Shown here: piece after piece, positions 5,722 through 56,883 of the stretch
Layout of the letters: the number at the start of each line of letters is the position of its first letter
How positions within the stretch are numbered: position 1 is the stretch's first letter
From: an archaeon
GTDB taxonomy: Archaea > Nanobdellota > Nanobdellia > Woesearchaeales > GW2011-AR4
Direction: 5' to 3'
NCBI GenBank assembly: GCA_002688925.1
Contig: NZEC01000006.1
Location: 27,385-88,826, forward strand
DNA length: 61,442 nucleotides
Position numbers and translations under genes: made by a program
Notes under the pieces: model-generated
Databases searched by the model: none
Seen by the model: only the letters and a program-made list of their open reading frames with translations
What the model was told of the DNA's origin: nothing

Positions 5722-5820
5722 AAGTGCTTATGCGTAAATTGCCAATGAAGCAAGCTCCGCAGGATATGTTATACGACCTGAGCAACGCATAGCGTTGCGA
5801 AGGGCCCCGCATAAGCACTT
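5722..5820 (+). repeat. stem-bounded element, copy A (short form)
   Basis: Perfect 13-bp terminal stem AAGTGCTTATGCG/CGCATAAGCACTT. Internal hairpin GCAACGC-ATA-GCGTTGC at 5782-5798. Lacks the TTGAGAAG...CTAAG block present in copies B-E. Confidence 0.85.
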
Positions 5821-5867
5821 ATTTTGTTAATAACCTAATTTTCCCAAAAGAAATCATCTAAAAAACC

Positions 5868-6182
5868 TTATTTCACGCATTTCCCATCAAAACACGTACC
5901 TTCCCTGCACCCGCAAAGCTCGCAGTAATCGACTAATTTCCCATTATCGCAGTACTTTGATTTTATTATAGTGGAACATTCCTGGTAAAGGCTTCCATCA
6001 GCGCAGCTTCCCTGCCCCATCTGGCTTAAATCAAAAGAATCAGCAACCTGTTCATTCTCCAAAACCACAAAACCAGTAGTTTCCGGTTCTGATGTAAACA
6101 AACCCAGTAAAGTTACAACCAGCAGCACTGAAAGCAGCATCCCATAATAATTTCCCTTTTTATTGAACATAATCCTGTTCAA
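5868..6182 (-). CDS. small secreted/membrane-anchored protein with an 8-Cys C-terminal module
   Basis: N-terminal hydrophobic segment. The C-terminus reads CADGSLYQEC...YCDNGKLVDYCELCGCREGTCFDGKC. Confidence 0.55.
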   Translation of the reverse strand: MNRIMFNKKGNYYGMLLSVLLVVTLLGLFTSEPETTGFVVLENEQVADSFDLSQMGQGSCADGSLYQECSTIIKSKYCDNGKLVDYCELCGCREGTCFDGKCVK

Positions 6183-6212
6183 TATTCAAAATTTAAATAT
6201 GTTTCGTTTTGG

Positions 6213-7073
6213 TTAGCTTAAATTTTTCTCAAAAAATCCCAAGACCCTGTTTTCATATTCTTCCTTATTCAGTGCATAAGTCTGTCCATGTCCTGCATTT
6301 TCCACAATCCAAAGCTCTGTTTTTTTGTTTGCATTATACAATATCTGCGCTTCATTAGCATCTATTTGCCTGTCTTTCTTTCCATGAATAATAAATATAG
6401 ACTTATTTTTCTTTTTAATATCAGTTGCAGGGCTTACATCTTTAATATCAATGCCAAAAAATAGTTTGCTATAAATTCTTGTCAATAAGACAAAGGGCGG
6501 TTTTAAGAAATAAAAATTCCTATACATACTTTCTATCATATTGTTTAAGTTCGAATATGCGCTGTCAGAAACAATTGCATCAATGTTTTCATTTTTATTC
6601 ATGATAGCTACAGCGCCACCCAATGAAAATCCCAAAGCGCCAATATTCCCTGTATCCTCTCTTGTTTTTAAGTAAGAAACCGCTCCATCCAAATCATTGA
6701 CTTCTTTGAAGCCGGCAGTTGTATATTTTCCCTCGCTTTCACCAAAGCTTCTGAAGTCAAATAAGAACACATTGAATTTTTCCAGTAAAAACATGGAAAA
6801 TGGCAGTACATCAGCCTTGTTTGTTGGGTAGCCGTGCATCACAATTATAGTATTATTTCCCTTACCAGGCAAAAACCACCCTTTCAGCTTTAACCCATCA
6901 GAACTTTTGAAAGCAACATTTTCATACTCTAAATCAAGGATTTCAGGAGTAAAATGCGCAGGCCACTTCCCGGGCCTTATAGACATATAAAATGTAAAGA
7001 AGGAAAAGATTATTATAAAAAGGACTATGTAAAGTAAAATCAGAATTGTGTTCCTTGGGATTAAGTTTAACAT
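6213..7073 (-). CDS. alpha/beta hydrolase with N-terminal membrane anchor
   Basis: Nucleophile elbow GFSLGG, followed by IIHGKKD and AGHGQ. Start at MLNLIPRN; the ORF-track start overlaps the purA start region. Confidence 0.7.
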   Translation of the reverse strand: MLNLIPRNTILILLYIVLFIIIFSFFTFYMSIRPGKWPAHFTPEILDLEYENVAFKSSDGLKLKGWFLPGKGNNTIIVMHGYPTNKADVLPFSMFLLEKFNVFLFDFRSFGESEGKYTTAGFKEVNDLDGAVSYLKTREDTGNIGALGFSLGGAVAIMNKNENIDAIVSDSAYSNLNNMIESMYRNFYFLKPPFVLLTRIYSKLFFGIDIKDVSPATDIKKKNKSIFIIHGKKDRQIDANEAQILYNANKKTELWIVENAGHGQTYALNKEEYENRVLGFFEKNLS

Positions 7074-7146
7074 TGATACATTATTATAATATAAATATAA
7101 AAAGATTTCCATAAGCTTTAAATACCGACTTTTATTCTCATTTCTT

Positions 7147-8325
7147 ATGGCAAACACAATCGCAGTTGTAGGCATGCAGTTCGGCGATGAAGGCAAGGGG
7201 AAAATAATAGATTATCTTGCAGAAACAGCAGATGTTGTTGCGCGATTCAATGGAGGCAATAACGCAGGCCACACTATTGTAGTTAATAATAAGGAATTTA
7301 TCTCTCATCTGGTGCCATCAGGAATTCTTCACAAGGGAAAAATAAACATAATTGGAAATGGCCTTGTTGTTGATCCAAAAGTTTTAACAGAAGAAATAAA
7401 AGAGCTAAAAGACAAAAATGTGAAAGTAACTCCTGACAATTTAATTATCAGTGAAAACGCGCATATCATTCTTGAAAAGTACATAGCAGAAGATAAGGAA
7501 AAAAACAGGCATTTAGGCACTACTTCAAGAGGCGTTGGGCCTGCATACGCAGCTAAAACATCAAGGTCAGGGATAAGAGTTATGGATTTTACAAGCCAGG
7601 ATAATAAGTTTTCTAAAGAACTGAAGCCATTTGTTAAAAACACAACCTTAATCATTAACGAACTGATTGATAAAAATAAAAAAGTCTTGTTTGAGGGAGC
7701 CCAGGGAGCTTTATTGGACATTGACCATGGCACTTACCCTTATGTTACATCATCCAATGTAATTGTTGGAGGGATCTGCACAGGATTGGGCATCGGCCCT
7801 AAAAAAATAAGCAGGGCATTGGGTGTTGGAAAAGCCTATGTAACAAGAGTGGGAGCAGGACCATTCCCGACTGAAGTCAAGGAGGATATAGGAAAGCATC
7901 TTCAGGGAAAAGGAAAAGAATTCGGGGCAACAACCGGAAGGCCAAGGCAGGTTGGCTGGTTTGATGCACTGATGGGAAAATACGCTGTTATGATAAACGG
8001 TCTGGATGCGCTTATACTGACAAAGCTGGATATTCTCTCAGGATTAAAAAAAATAAAAATATGCGTTGGCTACAAGCATAAAGACAAAATAATTAAAAAC
8101 TTCACAACAAATCTTGATGTTCTTGAAAACTGCGAACCCATATATGAGGATCTTCCCGGCTGGAACGAGGACATAAGCAATATAAAGGGATTTCAAAAAC
8201 TGCCGGAAAACGCAAAAAAATACATCAAAAGAATCGAGCAGCTTCTTGGAATTCCAGTCTGCATTGTCTCGTTAGGACCTGACCGGGAGCAGACAATCAT
8301 AATGAAAGAAGAGTTTTTGTTCTAA
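7147..8325 (+). CDS. purA: adenylosuccinate synthetase
   Basis: [25 protein letters not shown] and GATTGRPR motifs. Confidence 0.95.
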
Positions 8326-55014: not shown

Positions 55015-55122
55015 TTTCACACCCCTTAATTTGTGGTTTTCAATATCTACATTCAAATATAAATGTTAGAGTACCAAAATATTTATATTGAAGTTTATTC
55101 CTACTACTTCTTAGAATTGAGT

Positions 55123-55255
55123 TATTTGCGCCAACAAATAGCTTTATTAGAGCAATTTAACTGTTAAAAGAACTTTTACACAACAAAACAAGCCGATTAA
55201 GCACGCTTTTTCGCCAAAAAAAGCCGCTTTATTGAGTTTTTCGCCAAAAAAACTC
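55123..55255. promoter_or_regulatory. three hairpins of the form T-run-CGCC(A)A-A-run between ftsZ and dph5
   Basis: TATTTGCGCCAACAAATA at 55123-55140, GCTTTTTCGCCAAAAAAAGC at 55205-55224 and GAGTTTTTCGCCAAAAAAACTC at 55234-55255. Confidence 0.45.
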
Positions 55256-55504
55256 AAATATCGTTTTCTTAATATATTATTTAATGAATAAACTGATATT
55301 TAAAGATTTCTAAAGTGTAAACTATATGTTTTAGTATACTATTATGGGAATTTTGTTAAAGCGAGCATTGTGGCGAGCGATATAGATGCCGAGCGCATTG
55401 GCGAGGCCTGATTTTCTTTTAATATCAAAATTATTTGTTTTAAAGTTTAATCTTACTTGCTTTTTTATGATTAAAATTATAAATAAAGCATATTTACTCT
55501 TTTT

Positions 55505-56263
55505 ATGACTCTCTATTTTATAGGAATTGGCCTGAATGATGAAAAAGACATAACAGTGAAAGGCCTGGAACTAGTAAAAAAAGCAGATATAGTATATTTG
55601 GAAAACTACACTTCTAAAATTAACTGCAATATCAAGTATTTAGAAGATCTATATGGAAAGAAGATTATTCTGGCTGACAGGAAACTAGTGGAAATAGATG
55701 CAGATAAAACAATATTAGAAAATGCAAAAACTAAGGAAGTTGCTTTCTTAGTTGTTGGAGATGTATTTTCAGCCACAACCCACACAGATTTATATATAAG
55801 AGCTAGAAACATGGCAATCAAAACAAGAGTAATCAATAATGCTTCTGTACTGACTGTAGTGAGTATAACAGGCCTGCAATTATACAAATTCGGCAAAACT
55901 CCCAGCATTCCATTTGAAAATGAGAATGTAGAAACTCCTTATGATATCCTAAAGTTAAACCAAAAAAACAACCTCCACACTTTATTTATCCTTGATCTAA
56001 ATCCAGATACAAATAACAGCATGGCTGTAAATGATGCAATTAGGTATTTGTTAAAAGTAGAACTAAAAAGAGGAGAAAATGTGTTTAAAGACAGCACTTT
56101 ATGCATTGGCTGCGCTAAATTAGGAAGTTTAGATCAAATAATAAAAGCCGGAAAAGCAAAAGACCTCCTAAAAACAGATTTTAAGAACGGTATGCAATGC
56201 CTGATAGTTCCAGCTAAAAATCTTCATTTCATGGAAGAAGAAGCTATAAAACTTTATTATTAA
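55505..56263 (+). CDS. dph5: diphthine synthase
   Basis: Tetrapyrrole-methylase-fold N-terminus LYFIGIGL. Dph5 length and blocks VGDVFSATTH and PAKNLHFMEEEA. Confidence 0.85.
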   Translation: MTLYFIGIGLNDEKDITVKGLELVKKADIVYLENYTSKINCNIKYLEDLYGKKIILADRKLVEIDADKTILENAKTKEVAFLVVGDVFSATTHTDLYIRARNMAIKTRVINNASVLTVVSITGLQLYKFGKTPSIPFENENVETPYDILKLNQKNNLHTLFILDLNPDTNNSMAVNDAIRYLLKVELKRGENVFKDSTLCIGCAKLGSLDQIIKAGKAKDLLKTDFKNGMQCLIVPAKNLHFMEEEAIKLYY

Positions 56264-56640
56264 GCGCAATGATTATCCTCACACCCATTCCTGCATAAAA
56301 ATAGGAATTGCTTTGGATTTTCATCCTCGCAATAGAATTCCATCAAATAATTCTTATTCTGGCAGTAATCCTTGAACTCGAACCTTGTTGAATTACCGTA
56401 AAAACCAAAAATAGAGCCATTGACCCACCTTACAATGCCATTATCAGTATCATGACACAACCTCACTGTAACTATATCTTCTTTTTCTTCTTCCACTATT
56501 ACAGGAACTTCCTTATCTTCAGCTTCAATCTCATCAATAACAGCTGCAGTAATTTTTTCTTCTTCCATTATTTCTTCTTTACCGCAGCCAAAAAGAAATA
56601 TAACCACAAATATCAATAAAAAAGAAATTATTCTTCTCAT
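56260..56640 (-). CDS. small Cys-rich lipoprotein
   Basis: Lipobox-like FLFGC after the signal peptide, an acidic linker, then a C-terminal Cys module DYC...FYC...LCRNGCEDNHC. Confidence 0.6.
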   Translation of the reverse strand: MRRIISFLLIFVVIFLFGCGKEEIMEEEKITAAVIDEIEAEDKEVPVIVEEEKEDIVTVRLCHDTDNGIVRWVNGSIFGFYGNSTRFEFKDYCQNKNYLMEFYCEDENPKQFLFLCRNGCEDNHCA

Positions 56641-56695
56641 AATAGTACTAATACTATAATTATATAAAAAGTTTTGGGAATATTTAGATTATTTA

Positions 56696-56883
56696 GAAAG
56701 CCAGTGCTTATGCGAAGCCTTAGAGGGATTCTCAACTGCGCTAAATAATTGAATATGTGTTCATAGTTGCTATGTTCGAAATGGCAAACTAAAACCCATT
56801 TTGATGGGTGACGGAAAATTTCTAATTTTCCCATCATGTATGGAATTTTGCCATTTCCACTATACGCATAAGCACTGGCTCTC
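56696..56883 (-). repeat. stem-bounded element, copy E (long variant, reverse orientation)
   Basis: The 16-bp perfect terminal stem 56699-56714/56865-56880 has the same CCAGTGCTTATGCG core. The GTTGAGAA..CTAAGGC block is shared with copies B-D when reverse-complemented. The interior is replaced by nested stems: 56778-56788/56847-56857, 56802-56808/56830-56836 and 56813-56820/56824-56831. Confidence 0.85.

Follow-up and report, generated by a model that had tools for sequence, protein, structure and literature searches.

Structured repeats beside gene promoters of Woesearchaeota archaea are very probably non-autonomous transposons

The SM1-SM4 elements of Sulfolobus are examples of prokaryotic MITEs. 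The element described here resembles this class in being small, non-coding, multicopy and intergenic, in having inverted repeats at its ends and duplicating a fixed length of target, and in its insertion polymorphism and decay. It departs from the class in having no known parent insertion sequence, in its interior, where changes within a conserved multi-helix fold are compensated and which goes beyond the left and right ends of an insertion sequence, and in its duplicated target, which adjoins BRE/TATA promoters. A woesearchaeal genome was found in a census to be among the most MITE-dense of the archaea (PMC11602168).

bcr1 of the Bacillus cereus group (Klevan et al., 2007) is, in the account of it in PMC3184786, a MITE-like element of about 155 bp which is flanked by 5-bp direct repeats and is transcribed. 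The same account has its strain distribution as not conserved and its cruciform-like fold as kept by compensatory changes, with some copies less stable. On the features given there, both are MITE-like and about 150 bp long, with direct-repeat flanks, a non-conserved distribution and a compensated fold, whereas the element has an archaeal host and a 9-bp duplication and bcr1 a bacterial host and a 5-bp one. These two differences rule out membership in bcr1, which is best regarded, by this comparison, as an analogue and not a relative; no homology is claimed or expected.

Like the element, ERIC, Correia/NEMIS, BOX and RUP are imperfect palindromes which fold as RNA, have modular insertions inside them and lie beside genes, where they may affect expression, but they belong to another domain of life, have other sequences and in several cases carry promoters or RNase III sites (general knowledge and PMC3184786). 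Hairpin stems also co-vary in REP/BIME elements with RAYT and in IS200/IS605-derived palindromic elements, where structure is what is recognised. These elements lack terminal inverted repeats and target duplications; the element has both, and its assignment to either group was rejected for that reason.

A full copy is about 150 bp long (98-233 nt, median 154), with the inverted repeat RRGGTTGGTGCGAAAG(TCG) at its 5' end and (GAATTAGA)GTTTCGCACCAACCYY at its 3' end. An 11-bp stem, P1, is nested within the longer terminal inverted repeat RRGGTTGGTGCGAAAG.../...CTTTCGCACCAACCYY and closes a core made of a CUGA-hairpin-GAAG module and the conserved single-stranded blocks TTGCCAA, CGACCTGA, GAAGTTGAGA and TAAGG. 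TTGCCAA was in none of the search patterns and was found in 94 of 104 copies. The hairpin has loops of the GNA/GNRA type and varies in length (7, 15, 16, 17 or about 49 nt), breaking any reading frame; by size and by these lengths the element is small and non-coding, as MITEs are. Several places in the copies have received additional palindromic modules. About 115 sense copies were collected overall from Woesearchaeota-type genomes and metagenomes, one groundwater Woesearchaeota MAG having at least 22 matches. Half copies and one 98-nt mini copy exist, and no matches were found in phages, plasmids or viral contigs.

The CUGA ... GA arrangement, with tandem G-A beside a helix, recalls K-turn and box C/D RNAs, the ligands of L7Ae. 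The consensus CGAC-CU-GA-[stem]-GA-A-GUUG contains neither a 3-nt bulge nor a C box (RUGAUGA), its K-turn-like site being a 2-nt by 1-nt loop with CU opposite A, and Rfam C/D models gave only noise on the element. Hammerhead and other small self-cleaving ribozymes were also rejected: the stem comes straight after CUGA, the NGA of the CUGANGA ... GAAA core being absent, and no Rfam ribozyme matches were obtained at E values up to 10. Over all Rfam families and both strands nothing came at or near the gathering threshold (best match mir-548, 24.5 bits against a threshold of 90), which agrees with the initial annotation, where no named RNA family could be given.

The window, i.e. the whole stretch of 61,442 nucleotides that was analysed, holds five related intergenic copies (A-E) at the places where they were initially annotated, and no additional ones. 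The lengths originally assigned to them were too short, as the outer arms extend the copies to approximately the limits listed here. A hairpin proposed as a mini derivative is not a family member: it has only CCAGTG in common with the element and went undetected even with filters off.

3450-3490, plus strand: hairpin outside the family, unrelated, with a 10-bp stem ATGTCCAGTG...CACTGGACAT
5705-5842, plus strand: copy A, covariance model score 92.8 bits
5722-5734 and 5808-5820: inner stem P1 of copy A, AAGTGCTTATGCG/CGCATAAGCACTT
5778-5802: CTGA-hairpin-GAAG module of copy A
14516-14667, plus strand: copy B, 132.8 bits
14528-14545 and 14633-14650: P1 of copy B, 18 bp, variant TTGTGTG/CACACAA
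14589-14611: hairpin module of copy B
15301-15452, plus strand: copy C, 135 bits
15315-15330 and 15418-15433: P1 of copy C, 16 bp
15374-15396: hairpin module of copy C
27296-27448, plus strand: copy D, 141.3 bits
27296-27314: 5' outer arm of copy D, AAGGTTAGTGCAAAAGTCG, kept; the 3' outer arm is lost
27315-27325 and 27416-27426: P1 of copy D, 11 bp, GCGCTTGCGCG/CGCGCAAGCGC
27370-27394: hairpin module of copy D
56688-56892, minus strand: copy E, a variant with a different, longer interior, 38.9 bits
56865-56883 and 56696-56714, minus strand: P1 arms of copy E; the outer extension requires one G-U pair
56892-56865, minus strand: 5' outer arm and P1 of copy E, GGTTGGTGTGAGAGCCAGTGCTTATGCG
56893-56901, minus strand: target-site duplication of copy E, 5' side, CTAAATATT
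56679-56687, minus strand: target-site duplication of copy E, 3' side, CTAAATATT

The similarity and folding of the five copies are far beyond chance: the covariance model gives A-D 93-141 bits and E 39 bits, fold z-scores range from -4.2 to -8.5, and the common 3' pattern has four matches where 0.01 would be expected by chance. The arms are perfectly paired in all five and their differences between copies are compensated, with the closing-stem variants TTATGCG/CGCATAA, TTGTGTG/CACACAA and GCGCTTGCGCG/CGCGCAAGCGC just as first described. The same is true of the two versions of the hairpin module, GCAACGC-ATA-GCGTTGC in A and D and ACAAAC-GAA-GTTTGT in B and C. A third co-varying pairing had been proposed on the change of GCC:GGC to ACC:GGT; the change is present, but it is a single independent event confined to D and its orthologue.

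Copy A lies 58 nt upstream of the start of an Orc1/Cdc6 gene (4574-5647, minus), while copy C is flanked by ZPR1 (14707-15237, plus) and a gene of the purine nucleoside phosphorylase family (15499-16284). The other copies are placed between divergent genes: B between those for an M29 peptidase (13400-14479, minus) and ZPR1, D between those for a GT2 glycosyltransferase (26267-27076, minus) and PanB (27475-28248, plus), and E between 56260-56640 (minus) and 56951-58801 (plus). Immediately beyond the 3' duplication of copy E come the BRE CCCAAAAC (56678-56671) and the TATA box belonging to the gene at 56260-56640. Compared with the orthologue in a 98%-identical strain, copy A lacks 16 nt internally (TTGAGAGGCCCTCTAA, after GAAG), and its outer arms, AGGGTCAAC.. 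/ ..GTTAATAACCT, are degenerate. The 3' outer arm of copy E is truncated. Since outer arms are degenerate or lost, A is internally deleted and only E has a clean duplication, A-D being without one, the five copies are probably for the most part old, immobile relics.

In the wider set, 24 of the 44 distinct copies with both outer arms are bordered by 9-mers identical at no fewer than eight of nine positions and flush with the element ends (14 of them perfect), a level reached by 1.1% of shuffled-flank controls; the length of the duplication is fixed at 9 bp. At one locus the empty site is seen in L089 (..TTCTTAGAATACCT|AATAATTTTTAAATG), and L042 has there the element and a second copy of the roughly 9-bp target. 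Four further filled/empty pairs were found. Strains 97-99% identical to the window keep A, have a remnant of B and lack C: only a diverged 3' part of copy B is left in a 99%-identical strain, and C is missing from the 97-98%-identical strain L002/L003. A 98.5%-identical strain (L085) has retained copy D. Element positions differ between species, without synteny, and one spacer was hit independently in L013 and L074, with different duplications.

Because of the terminal inverted repeats, the 9-bp duplications, the empty sites and the variation of copies between close strains, we consider the element very probably a non-autonomous transposon (MITE) with many copies in DPANN/Woesearchaeota archaea. 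The initial annotation had named target-site duplications, uncompensated mismatches and an autonomous transposase-bearing partner with the same ends as the marks of an ordinary MITE. Duplications are present, and uncompensated mismatches are seen together with decayed and truncated copies. The window and about 0.9 Mb of fetched loci yielded no transposase gene bounded by the element's ends, and we therefore infer the mobilising enzyme: a DDE-type transposase supplied in trans would move the element via 9-bp staggered cuts.

Insertion places the element immediately upstream of gene promoters. BRE/TATA motifs that face outward peak 9 nt beyond both of its ends, inward-facing controls being rare and unphased, and the duplicated 9-mer typically adjoins a BRE/TATA promoter of this outward orientation. 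As a result, copies accumulate about 46-49 bp before start codons, often in the spacer of two divergent genes: of 65 copies that have a gene on each side, 27 have divergent neighbours and 4 have convergent ones. Beside the 3' ends of genes the two orientations occur 32 and 27 times. No consensus BRE/TATA was seen within the conserved interior on reading the element consensus.

Pairing within the fold is conserved across 104 distinct copies, with 92.3% of cells paired, against 24-42% when the partners are slid. Double changes occur in 19 of 35 pairs, and none of 500 shuffles reached the observed values. In P1, fully compensated haplotypes exist at 6 of 11 positions with complementarity retained, which bears out the original claim that the arms co-vary beyond what decay allows. 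The outer arms RRGGTTGGTGCGAAAG / CTTTCGCACCAACCYY are 82% paired (104 copies) and include GG/CC to TT/AA co-variants. G-U mismatches outnumber A-C ones both in P1 (32:17) and in the outer arms (58:45), and single-mismatch intermediates of P1 are G-U in 9-10 haplotypes and A-C in 3. Of 91 copies, 64 have the plus strand as the better folder, and the mean advantage of this strand is 2.4 kcal/mol, these strand statistics coming from mutually related copies and not from independent samples; the plus-strand bias of mismatch counts and predicted stability is modest. The pairing constraint is real. The fold is not accounted for by the ordinary MITE model alone, since P1 has changed at 6 of 11 positions and is still complementary and since a plus-strand lean is not a property of double-stranded transposase sites.

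Much of this would suit independently transcribed structured small RNA genes that have their own promoters and whose helices are kept by host selection: strong covariation in P1 and the hairpin module, unpaired blocks conserved across genomes, mostly G-U intermediates, the plus strand as the better folder and GNA/GNRA-type loops. We nevertheless consider such genes very unlikely in view of the target-site duplications and the empty sites, of near-identical strains that lose, truncate or internally delete copies, and of copy locations that are not syntenic across species, are empty in relatives and in one case share a spacer with differing duplications. The adjacent TATA boxes have their BRE on the element side and so fire away from it, the interior consensus offers no promoter of its own, both orientations occur beside gene 3' ends and Rfam gives no match. 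The initial idea of a structured RNA gene family is not supported on these grounds (duplications, polymorphic and non-syntenic insertions, both orientations, outward promoters), and its alternative, a hairpin-selected repeat, fits. The complementarity could also be an unselected mutational by-product, with template switching or snap-back synthesis during replication correcting one arm against the other, gene conversion swapping segments between copies and hairpins replaced wholesale by new perfect palindromes. Hairpin variants are indeed near-perfect palindromes of unrelated sequence and length, palindromic modules have been added at several places, and orthologous copies diverge more inside than in their flanks, with the swapped segments recurring in other copies. 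P1 also decays together with the outer arms: of 46 copies whose arms are intact, 42 have a perfect P1, against only 15 of 26 with at most four of seven arm pairs. Copy detection itself depends on P1 and so biases the survey against copies with decayed P1. This process predicts neither the excess of G-U over A-C nor the plus-strand advantage, nor the strictly conserved unpaired blocks between the stems, and we hold it to be possible but doubtful.

The fold might instead act as single-stranded DNA hairpins recognised by a mobilising enzyme or the replication machinery, as HUH transposases do with IS200/IS605 ends and as in REP. Recognition of structure and not of sequence would explain the joint change of both arms, and no internal promoter was seen in the consensus. 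Mini-hairpins of the d(GCGAAGC) type are exceptionally stable in DNA; the short hairpin variant of the element is GCGAAGC, and its loops are GAA, GCA or GAAA. DDE cut- or copy-and-paste transposition on double-stranded DNA is characterised by fixed duplications together with terminal inverted repeats, whereas HUH single-strand transposition (IS200/IS605) leaves no target duplication. The element's fixed 9-bp duplications and terminal inverted repeats thus point to DDE transposition, no HUH or RAYT gene was seen near the copies, and we regard action as single-stranded DNA as unlikely.

Returning to the non-autonomous transposon, its interior pairing is kept through compensatory change. From this we infer a fold that copies of the propagating lineage need and that acts single-stranded, with RNA somewhat more likely than single-stranded DNA as the acting strand. 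By analogy, the element is best placed among structured MITEs such as bcr1.

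All five copies listed in the initial annotation (A-D on the forward strand, E on the reverse) lie where it placed them in the window, each closed by a perfectly paired stem, and in every one of them a conserved CGACCTGA is followed by a short hairpin and then GAAG. The shared 3' pattern AGTTGAGA-N7-TAAGG-N3-CNCNNAAGCNC occurs four times against 0.01 expected, and folds of the individual sequences exceed those of shuffles in stability by 4-8 standard deviations. With R1, a covariance model built from 24 copies, A-D reach 93-141 bits and E reaches 39 bits; run over the whole 61 kb with all filters off, the model found no further copies. 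The mini derivative proposed at 3450-3490 is not a member of the family, since R1 misses this locus and only CCAGTG is held in common.

Comparison with other genomes shows that the element extends past the limits first drawn. P1, the 11-bp inner stem that closes the core (consensus GTGCTTGTGCG/CGCACAAGCAC), is nested inside a 5' outer arm, RRGGTTGGTGCGAAAGTCG, and a 3' outer arm, GAATTAGAGTTTCGCACCAACCYY, and 9-bp direct repeats are found directly outside these arms. Among 44 distinct copies with both arms intact, the flanking 9-mers are identical at eight or more of nine positions in 24 and perfect in 14; flanks paired between different copies, used as the control, give 1.1%. Within the window only copy E has a clean duplication, with CTAAATATT on both sides.

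Target-site duplication of copy E
56893-56901, reverse strand: duplicated 9-mer on one side of the copy
56679-56687, reverse strand: duplicated 9-mer on the other side

Duplications were also sought around copies A-D and none could be identified; their outer arms are degenerate or lost, and we read these copies as old relics.

An empty site, TTCTTAGAATACCT joined directly to AATAATTTTTAAATG, is present at locus L089, while at L042 the element stands between two copies of this target of about 9 bp; four further pairs of filled and empty sites were found. In strains with 97-99% identity to the window copy A is retained, the window's own A having lost 16 nt, copy B persists only as a diverged 3' remnant and copy C is absent; another strain keeps copy D. 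Other genomes also contain half copies and a deletion derivative of 98 nt, and a single spacer carries copies with unlike duplications in two species, which indicates independent insertions. Inverted ends, duplications, empty sites and strain polymorphism are the defining properties of a MITE, and all those that can be tested are present here, a known parent excepted. The family is a new hairpin-structured MITE, of a kind that is itself already known.

When one genome per species was searched for the shared pattern, 32 loci came back, nearly all of them in metagenome-assembled genomes (MAGs) of Woesearchaeota/Nanoarchaeota, with more than 20 matches in a single groundwater MAG; housekeeping genes of the window share 71-79% nucleotide identity with those MAGs, which places its source among marine DPANN archaea of the Woesearchaeota type. 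Scanning metagenomes with a pattern that contained no stem added 86 loci, bringing the sense-strand copies gathered to about 115. The family has no match in the viral contigs, phage records and plasmid records searched. Genomes of DPANN archaea are very small and contain few recognisable mobile-element genes, yet there are five copies in 61 kb here and more than 20 in one groundwater genome. In a census of MITEs a Woesearchaeal genome, with 105 per Mb, ranks among the most MITE-dense archaea (PMC11602168).

The genes of the window are archaeal housekeeping genes, coding among others for Orc1/Cdc6, ZPR1, PanB, SMC, aEF-1alpha, AlaRS, FtsZ and a Cdc45/GAN-like protein. Two of its three tRNA genes contain introns: one has a 33-nt intron and another has two insertions of about 36 nt, at the D-loop region and the anticodon loop. 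The intron-less tRNA-Gly(TCC) is the only one of the three that ARAGORN calls.

tRNA genes of the window
41528-41630, reverse strand: tRNA gene
12873-13010, reverse strand: tRNA gene
48466-48539, reverse strand: tRNA gene

The arms had been described as changing together between copies, and this holds in a model-based alignment of 109 copies (104 distinct). Standard pairs fill 92.3% of cells, and sliding the partners by 1-3 columns leaves 24-42%; both sides have changed at 19 of 35 pairs (230 cells), and none of 500 shuffles matches the observed values. P1 is paired in 96% of cells, as is the hairpin after CCUGA, where five of six pairs are compensated. The pairing constraint is real. P1 occurs in at least six fully paired haplotypes that differ at six of the 11 positions, exclusively by transitions. 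The third pairing proposed, with its change from GCC/GGC to ACC/GGT, rests on one independent event. The TTGCCAA block is found in 94 of 104 copies and was absent from every search pattern; the invariance of GACCYGA, GAAGTTGAGA and TAAGG owes partly to the design of the searches.

Signals of strandedness in mismatches and folding are modest, and tests overstate their significance because the copies are mutually related. Single mismatches in P1 are G-U in 9-10 haplotypes against A-C in three, the corresponding ratio of cells being 32:17 in P1 and 58:45 in the outer arms. A proposed CGAC/GUUG helix has one invariant G-U and, in addition, 15 U-G and zero A-C. In 64 of 91 copies the plus strand gives the better fold of the two, with a mean advantage of 2.4 kcal/mol. 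The shortest variant of the hairpin after CCTGA is GCGAAGC (L015/L013 and others), and loops across the family are mostly GAA, GCA or GAAA. Such hairpins and loops are unusually stable in DNA and RNA alike, so a role as single-stranded DNA has to be kept in consideration.

The reading as a structured RNA or hairpin-selected repeat is partly supported: it stands in its co-variation but not as far as RNA genes with their own promoters are concerned, against which the outward promoters, duplications and empty sites argue. A small RNA gene in each copy would be served by a TATA box about 25 nt upstream, part of which, however, is the 5' outer arm itself. Genes of the window have a CCAAAAC-like BRE and immediately after it a TTTAWAWA box about 30 nt ahead of the start codon. 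Across 50 dereplicated upstream flanks, a TTTAWAAA phased at -25 to -18 precedes a T-run, together the reverse complement of BRE plus TATA, and the downstream flanks mirror this arrangement. The BRE lies on the element side, so the boxes drive neighbouring genes and cannot be taken as promoters of the element. No consensus BRE/TATA was seen in the conserved interior.

Scored as AAAACnTTTAWAWA with up to two mismatches, the outward motif peaks 9 nt off both ends (19 of 33 hits at the 5' end and 13 of 30 at the 3' end fall at offsets 7-11), while the inward-facing motif is rare (6 and 4) and unphased. The duplicated 9-mer therefore typically abuts the BRE, and the promoters fire away from the element. 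In the window and among loci L004-L121 from other genomes, an outward BRE/TATA stands 9 nt, the length of the duplication, from the ends on one or both sides; next to copy E, the BRE at 56671-56678 adjoins the duplication. Where genes were called on both sides (65 copies), 27 copies lie between divergent genes, like B, D and E of the window, and four between convergent genes. The distance to the start codon is concentrated at 46-49 nt. Both orientations occur beside gene 3' ends (32 and 27). This placement may reflect targeting or the survival of harmless insertions; active targeting to the upstream edge of archaeal promoters is a possibility and, if real, would parallel in archaea the promoter-targeted integration known from eukaryotes. 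Copy A adjoins the Orc1/Cdc6 gene, as an element of a replication origin might, a reading against which the dispersed positions of the other copies and the mobility of the family speak.

The fixed 9-bp duplication and the inverted ends suggest, from established transposon biology, that a DDE-type enzyme would move the element in trans. No transposase was found among the window ORFs, in the orphan terminal repeats examined for an autonomous partner (decayed fragments), or between inverted repeats 0.6-3.5 kb apart. Genes between inverted copies are ProRS and MetK, and the recurrent ORF families near copies (radical SAM, GT2, AglB/STT3, sugar-nucleotide enzymes) likewise include no transposase. 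The element end resembles that of IS5, GGAAGGTGCGAA, but kinship was set aside since the IS5 duplication is 4 bp against 9 bp here. An IS200/REP-type element was also rejected for this family, which has both the terminal inverted repeats and the target duplication that such elements lack. A MITE with no visible transposase raises the question whether its mover is a rare genomic copy, a virus or the symbionts' host cell.

The core is found on GGTTGGTGCG-type ends and, in the groundwater MAG, on GTAACTGCTAACA-type ends. In this MAG, JACPMQ01 (L004, L008, L010, L018, L019, L027, L030-L032 and L035; in L031 at 3201-3409), the whole element is nested within a second inverted repeat, GTAACTGCTAACA.../...TGTTAGCAGTTAC, so that two kinds of ends carry the core. 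The second repeat has its own 8-9-bp duplication, and its ends also bound another, different repeat of about 210 bp.

A palindromic module, GC-rich and 35-45 nt long (GAATTGCGAGCGA...TCGCTCG...), occupies two different positions of the element in different copies, and L007 has two additional AAAAATTCC...GGAATTTTT hairpins; such additions may be expanded hairpins or mobile palindromes of even smaller size.

Loci with the GC-rich module
L005 6562-6741
L009 3501-3679
L074 7396-7575

Further loci with the GC-rich module or, in L007, the additional hairpins
L020 2403-2588
L026 5227-5417
L034 5529-5719
L007 7182-7457

L029 (1228-1388, reverse strand) retains only the 3' half of the element; an ORF beginning MKTKKGAVGLQFNW... 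runs through it, possibly a chimeric gene start.

P1 decays alongside the outer arms, being perfect in 42 of 46 copies with intact arms against 15 of 26 with four or fewer of seven arm pairs, so the five perfect stems of the window are not strong evidence for selection in place; copies are also deleted between strains. Several copies lie directly upstream of three paralogous genes for B12-binding radical SAM proteins (25-33% identical to one another), in divergent orientation, with the start codon mostly 45-60 nt away and, in L088, about 170 nt.

Copies near B12-binding radical SAM genes
L067 765-914
L098 1672-1821
L088 11735-11884
L075 1418-1570
L115 2114-2269

In orthologous radical SAM copies the interior is more divergent than the flanks, and segments swapped there are seen again in other copies, a sign that copies may exchange segments. 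The core stays folded with its loops conserved while variable segments turn over; together with its two types of ends, this is what points to the core as a functional passenger on transposon ends. It would act as structured RNA or as a signal in single-stranded DNA, either needed by the element or co-opted by the host. We consider this passenger reading, and the separate one that promoter edges are targeted, rather unlikely.

The absence of any named RNA family is borne out: Rfam, searched at gathering thresholds with the window and at E up to 10 with copies B/C, E and one full copy of another genome, gave only tRNAs and noise. Neither a K-turn or box C/D RNA nor a hammerhead is compatible with the loop geometry and core motifs. 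A weak box C/D-like match to snoZ40 (14414-14477, reverse strand; 21.8 bits against a threshold of 50, E 0.14) sits within the 5' end of an M29 peptidase ORF and is probably noise. Bacteria are already known to have structured MITE-like repeats with compensatory changes, and among these bcr1 from the Bacillus cereus group comes closest as an analogue: it is about 155 bp long, has 5-bp direct repeats and compensated stems, and is transcribed (PMC3184786). Searching the literature with the repeat sequences returned unrelated primers only, and no description of this particular family was found in the literature searched.

The case is a caution for RNA discovery. Strong covariation and conserved loops can stem from a transposable element, which makes it advisable to inspect flanks and empty sites before a new RNA class is named. 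The unexplained maintenance of the fold, the placement against promoters and the missing transposase make the family worth following up. Directly upstream of BRE/TATA, copies are positioned where the expression of housekeeping and cell-surface genes could change, and an inserted copy could modulate neighbouring genes of a genome-reduced symbiont. Should the core act as RNA, a structured archaeal RNA absent from the catalogues would be spreading by transposition.
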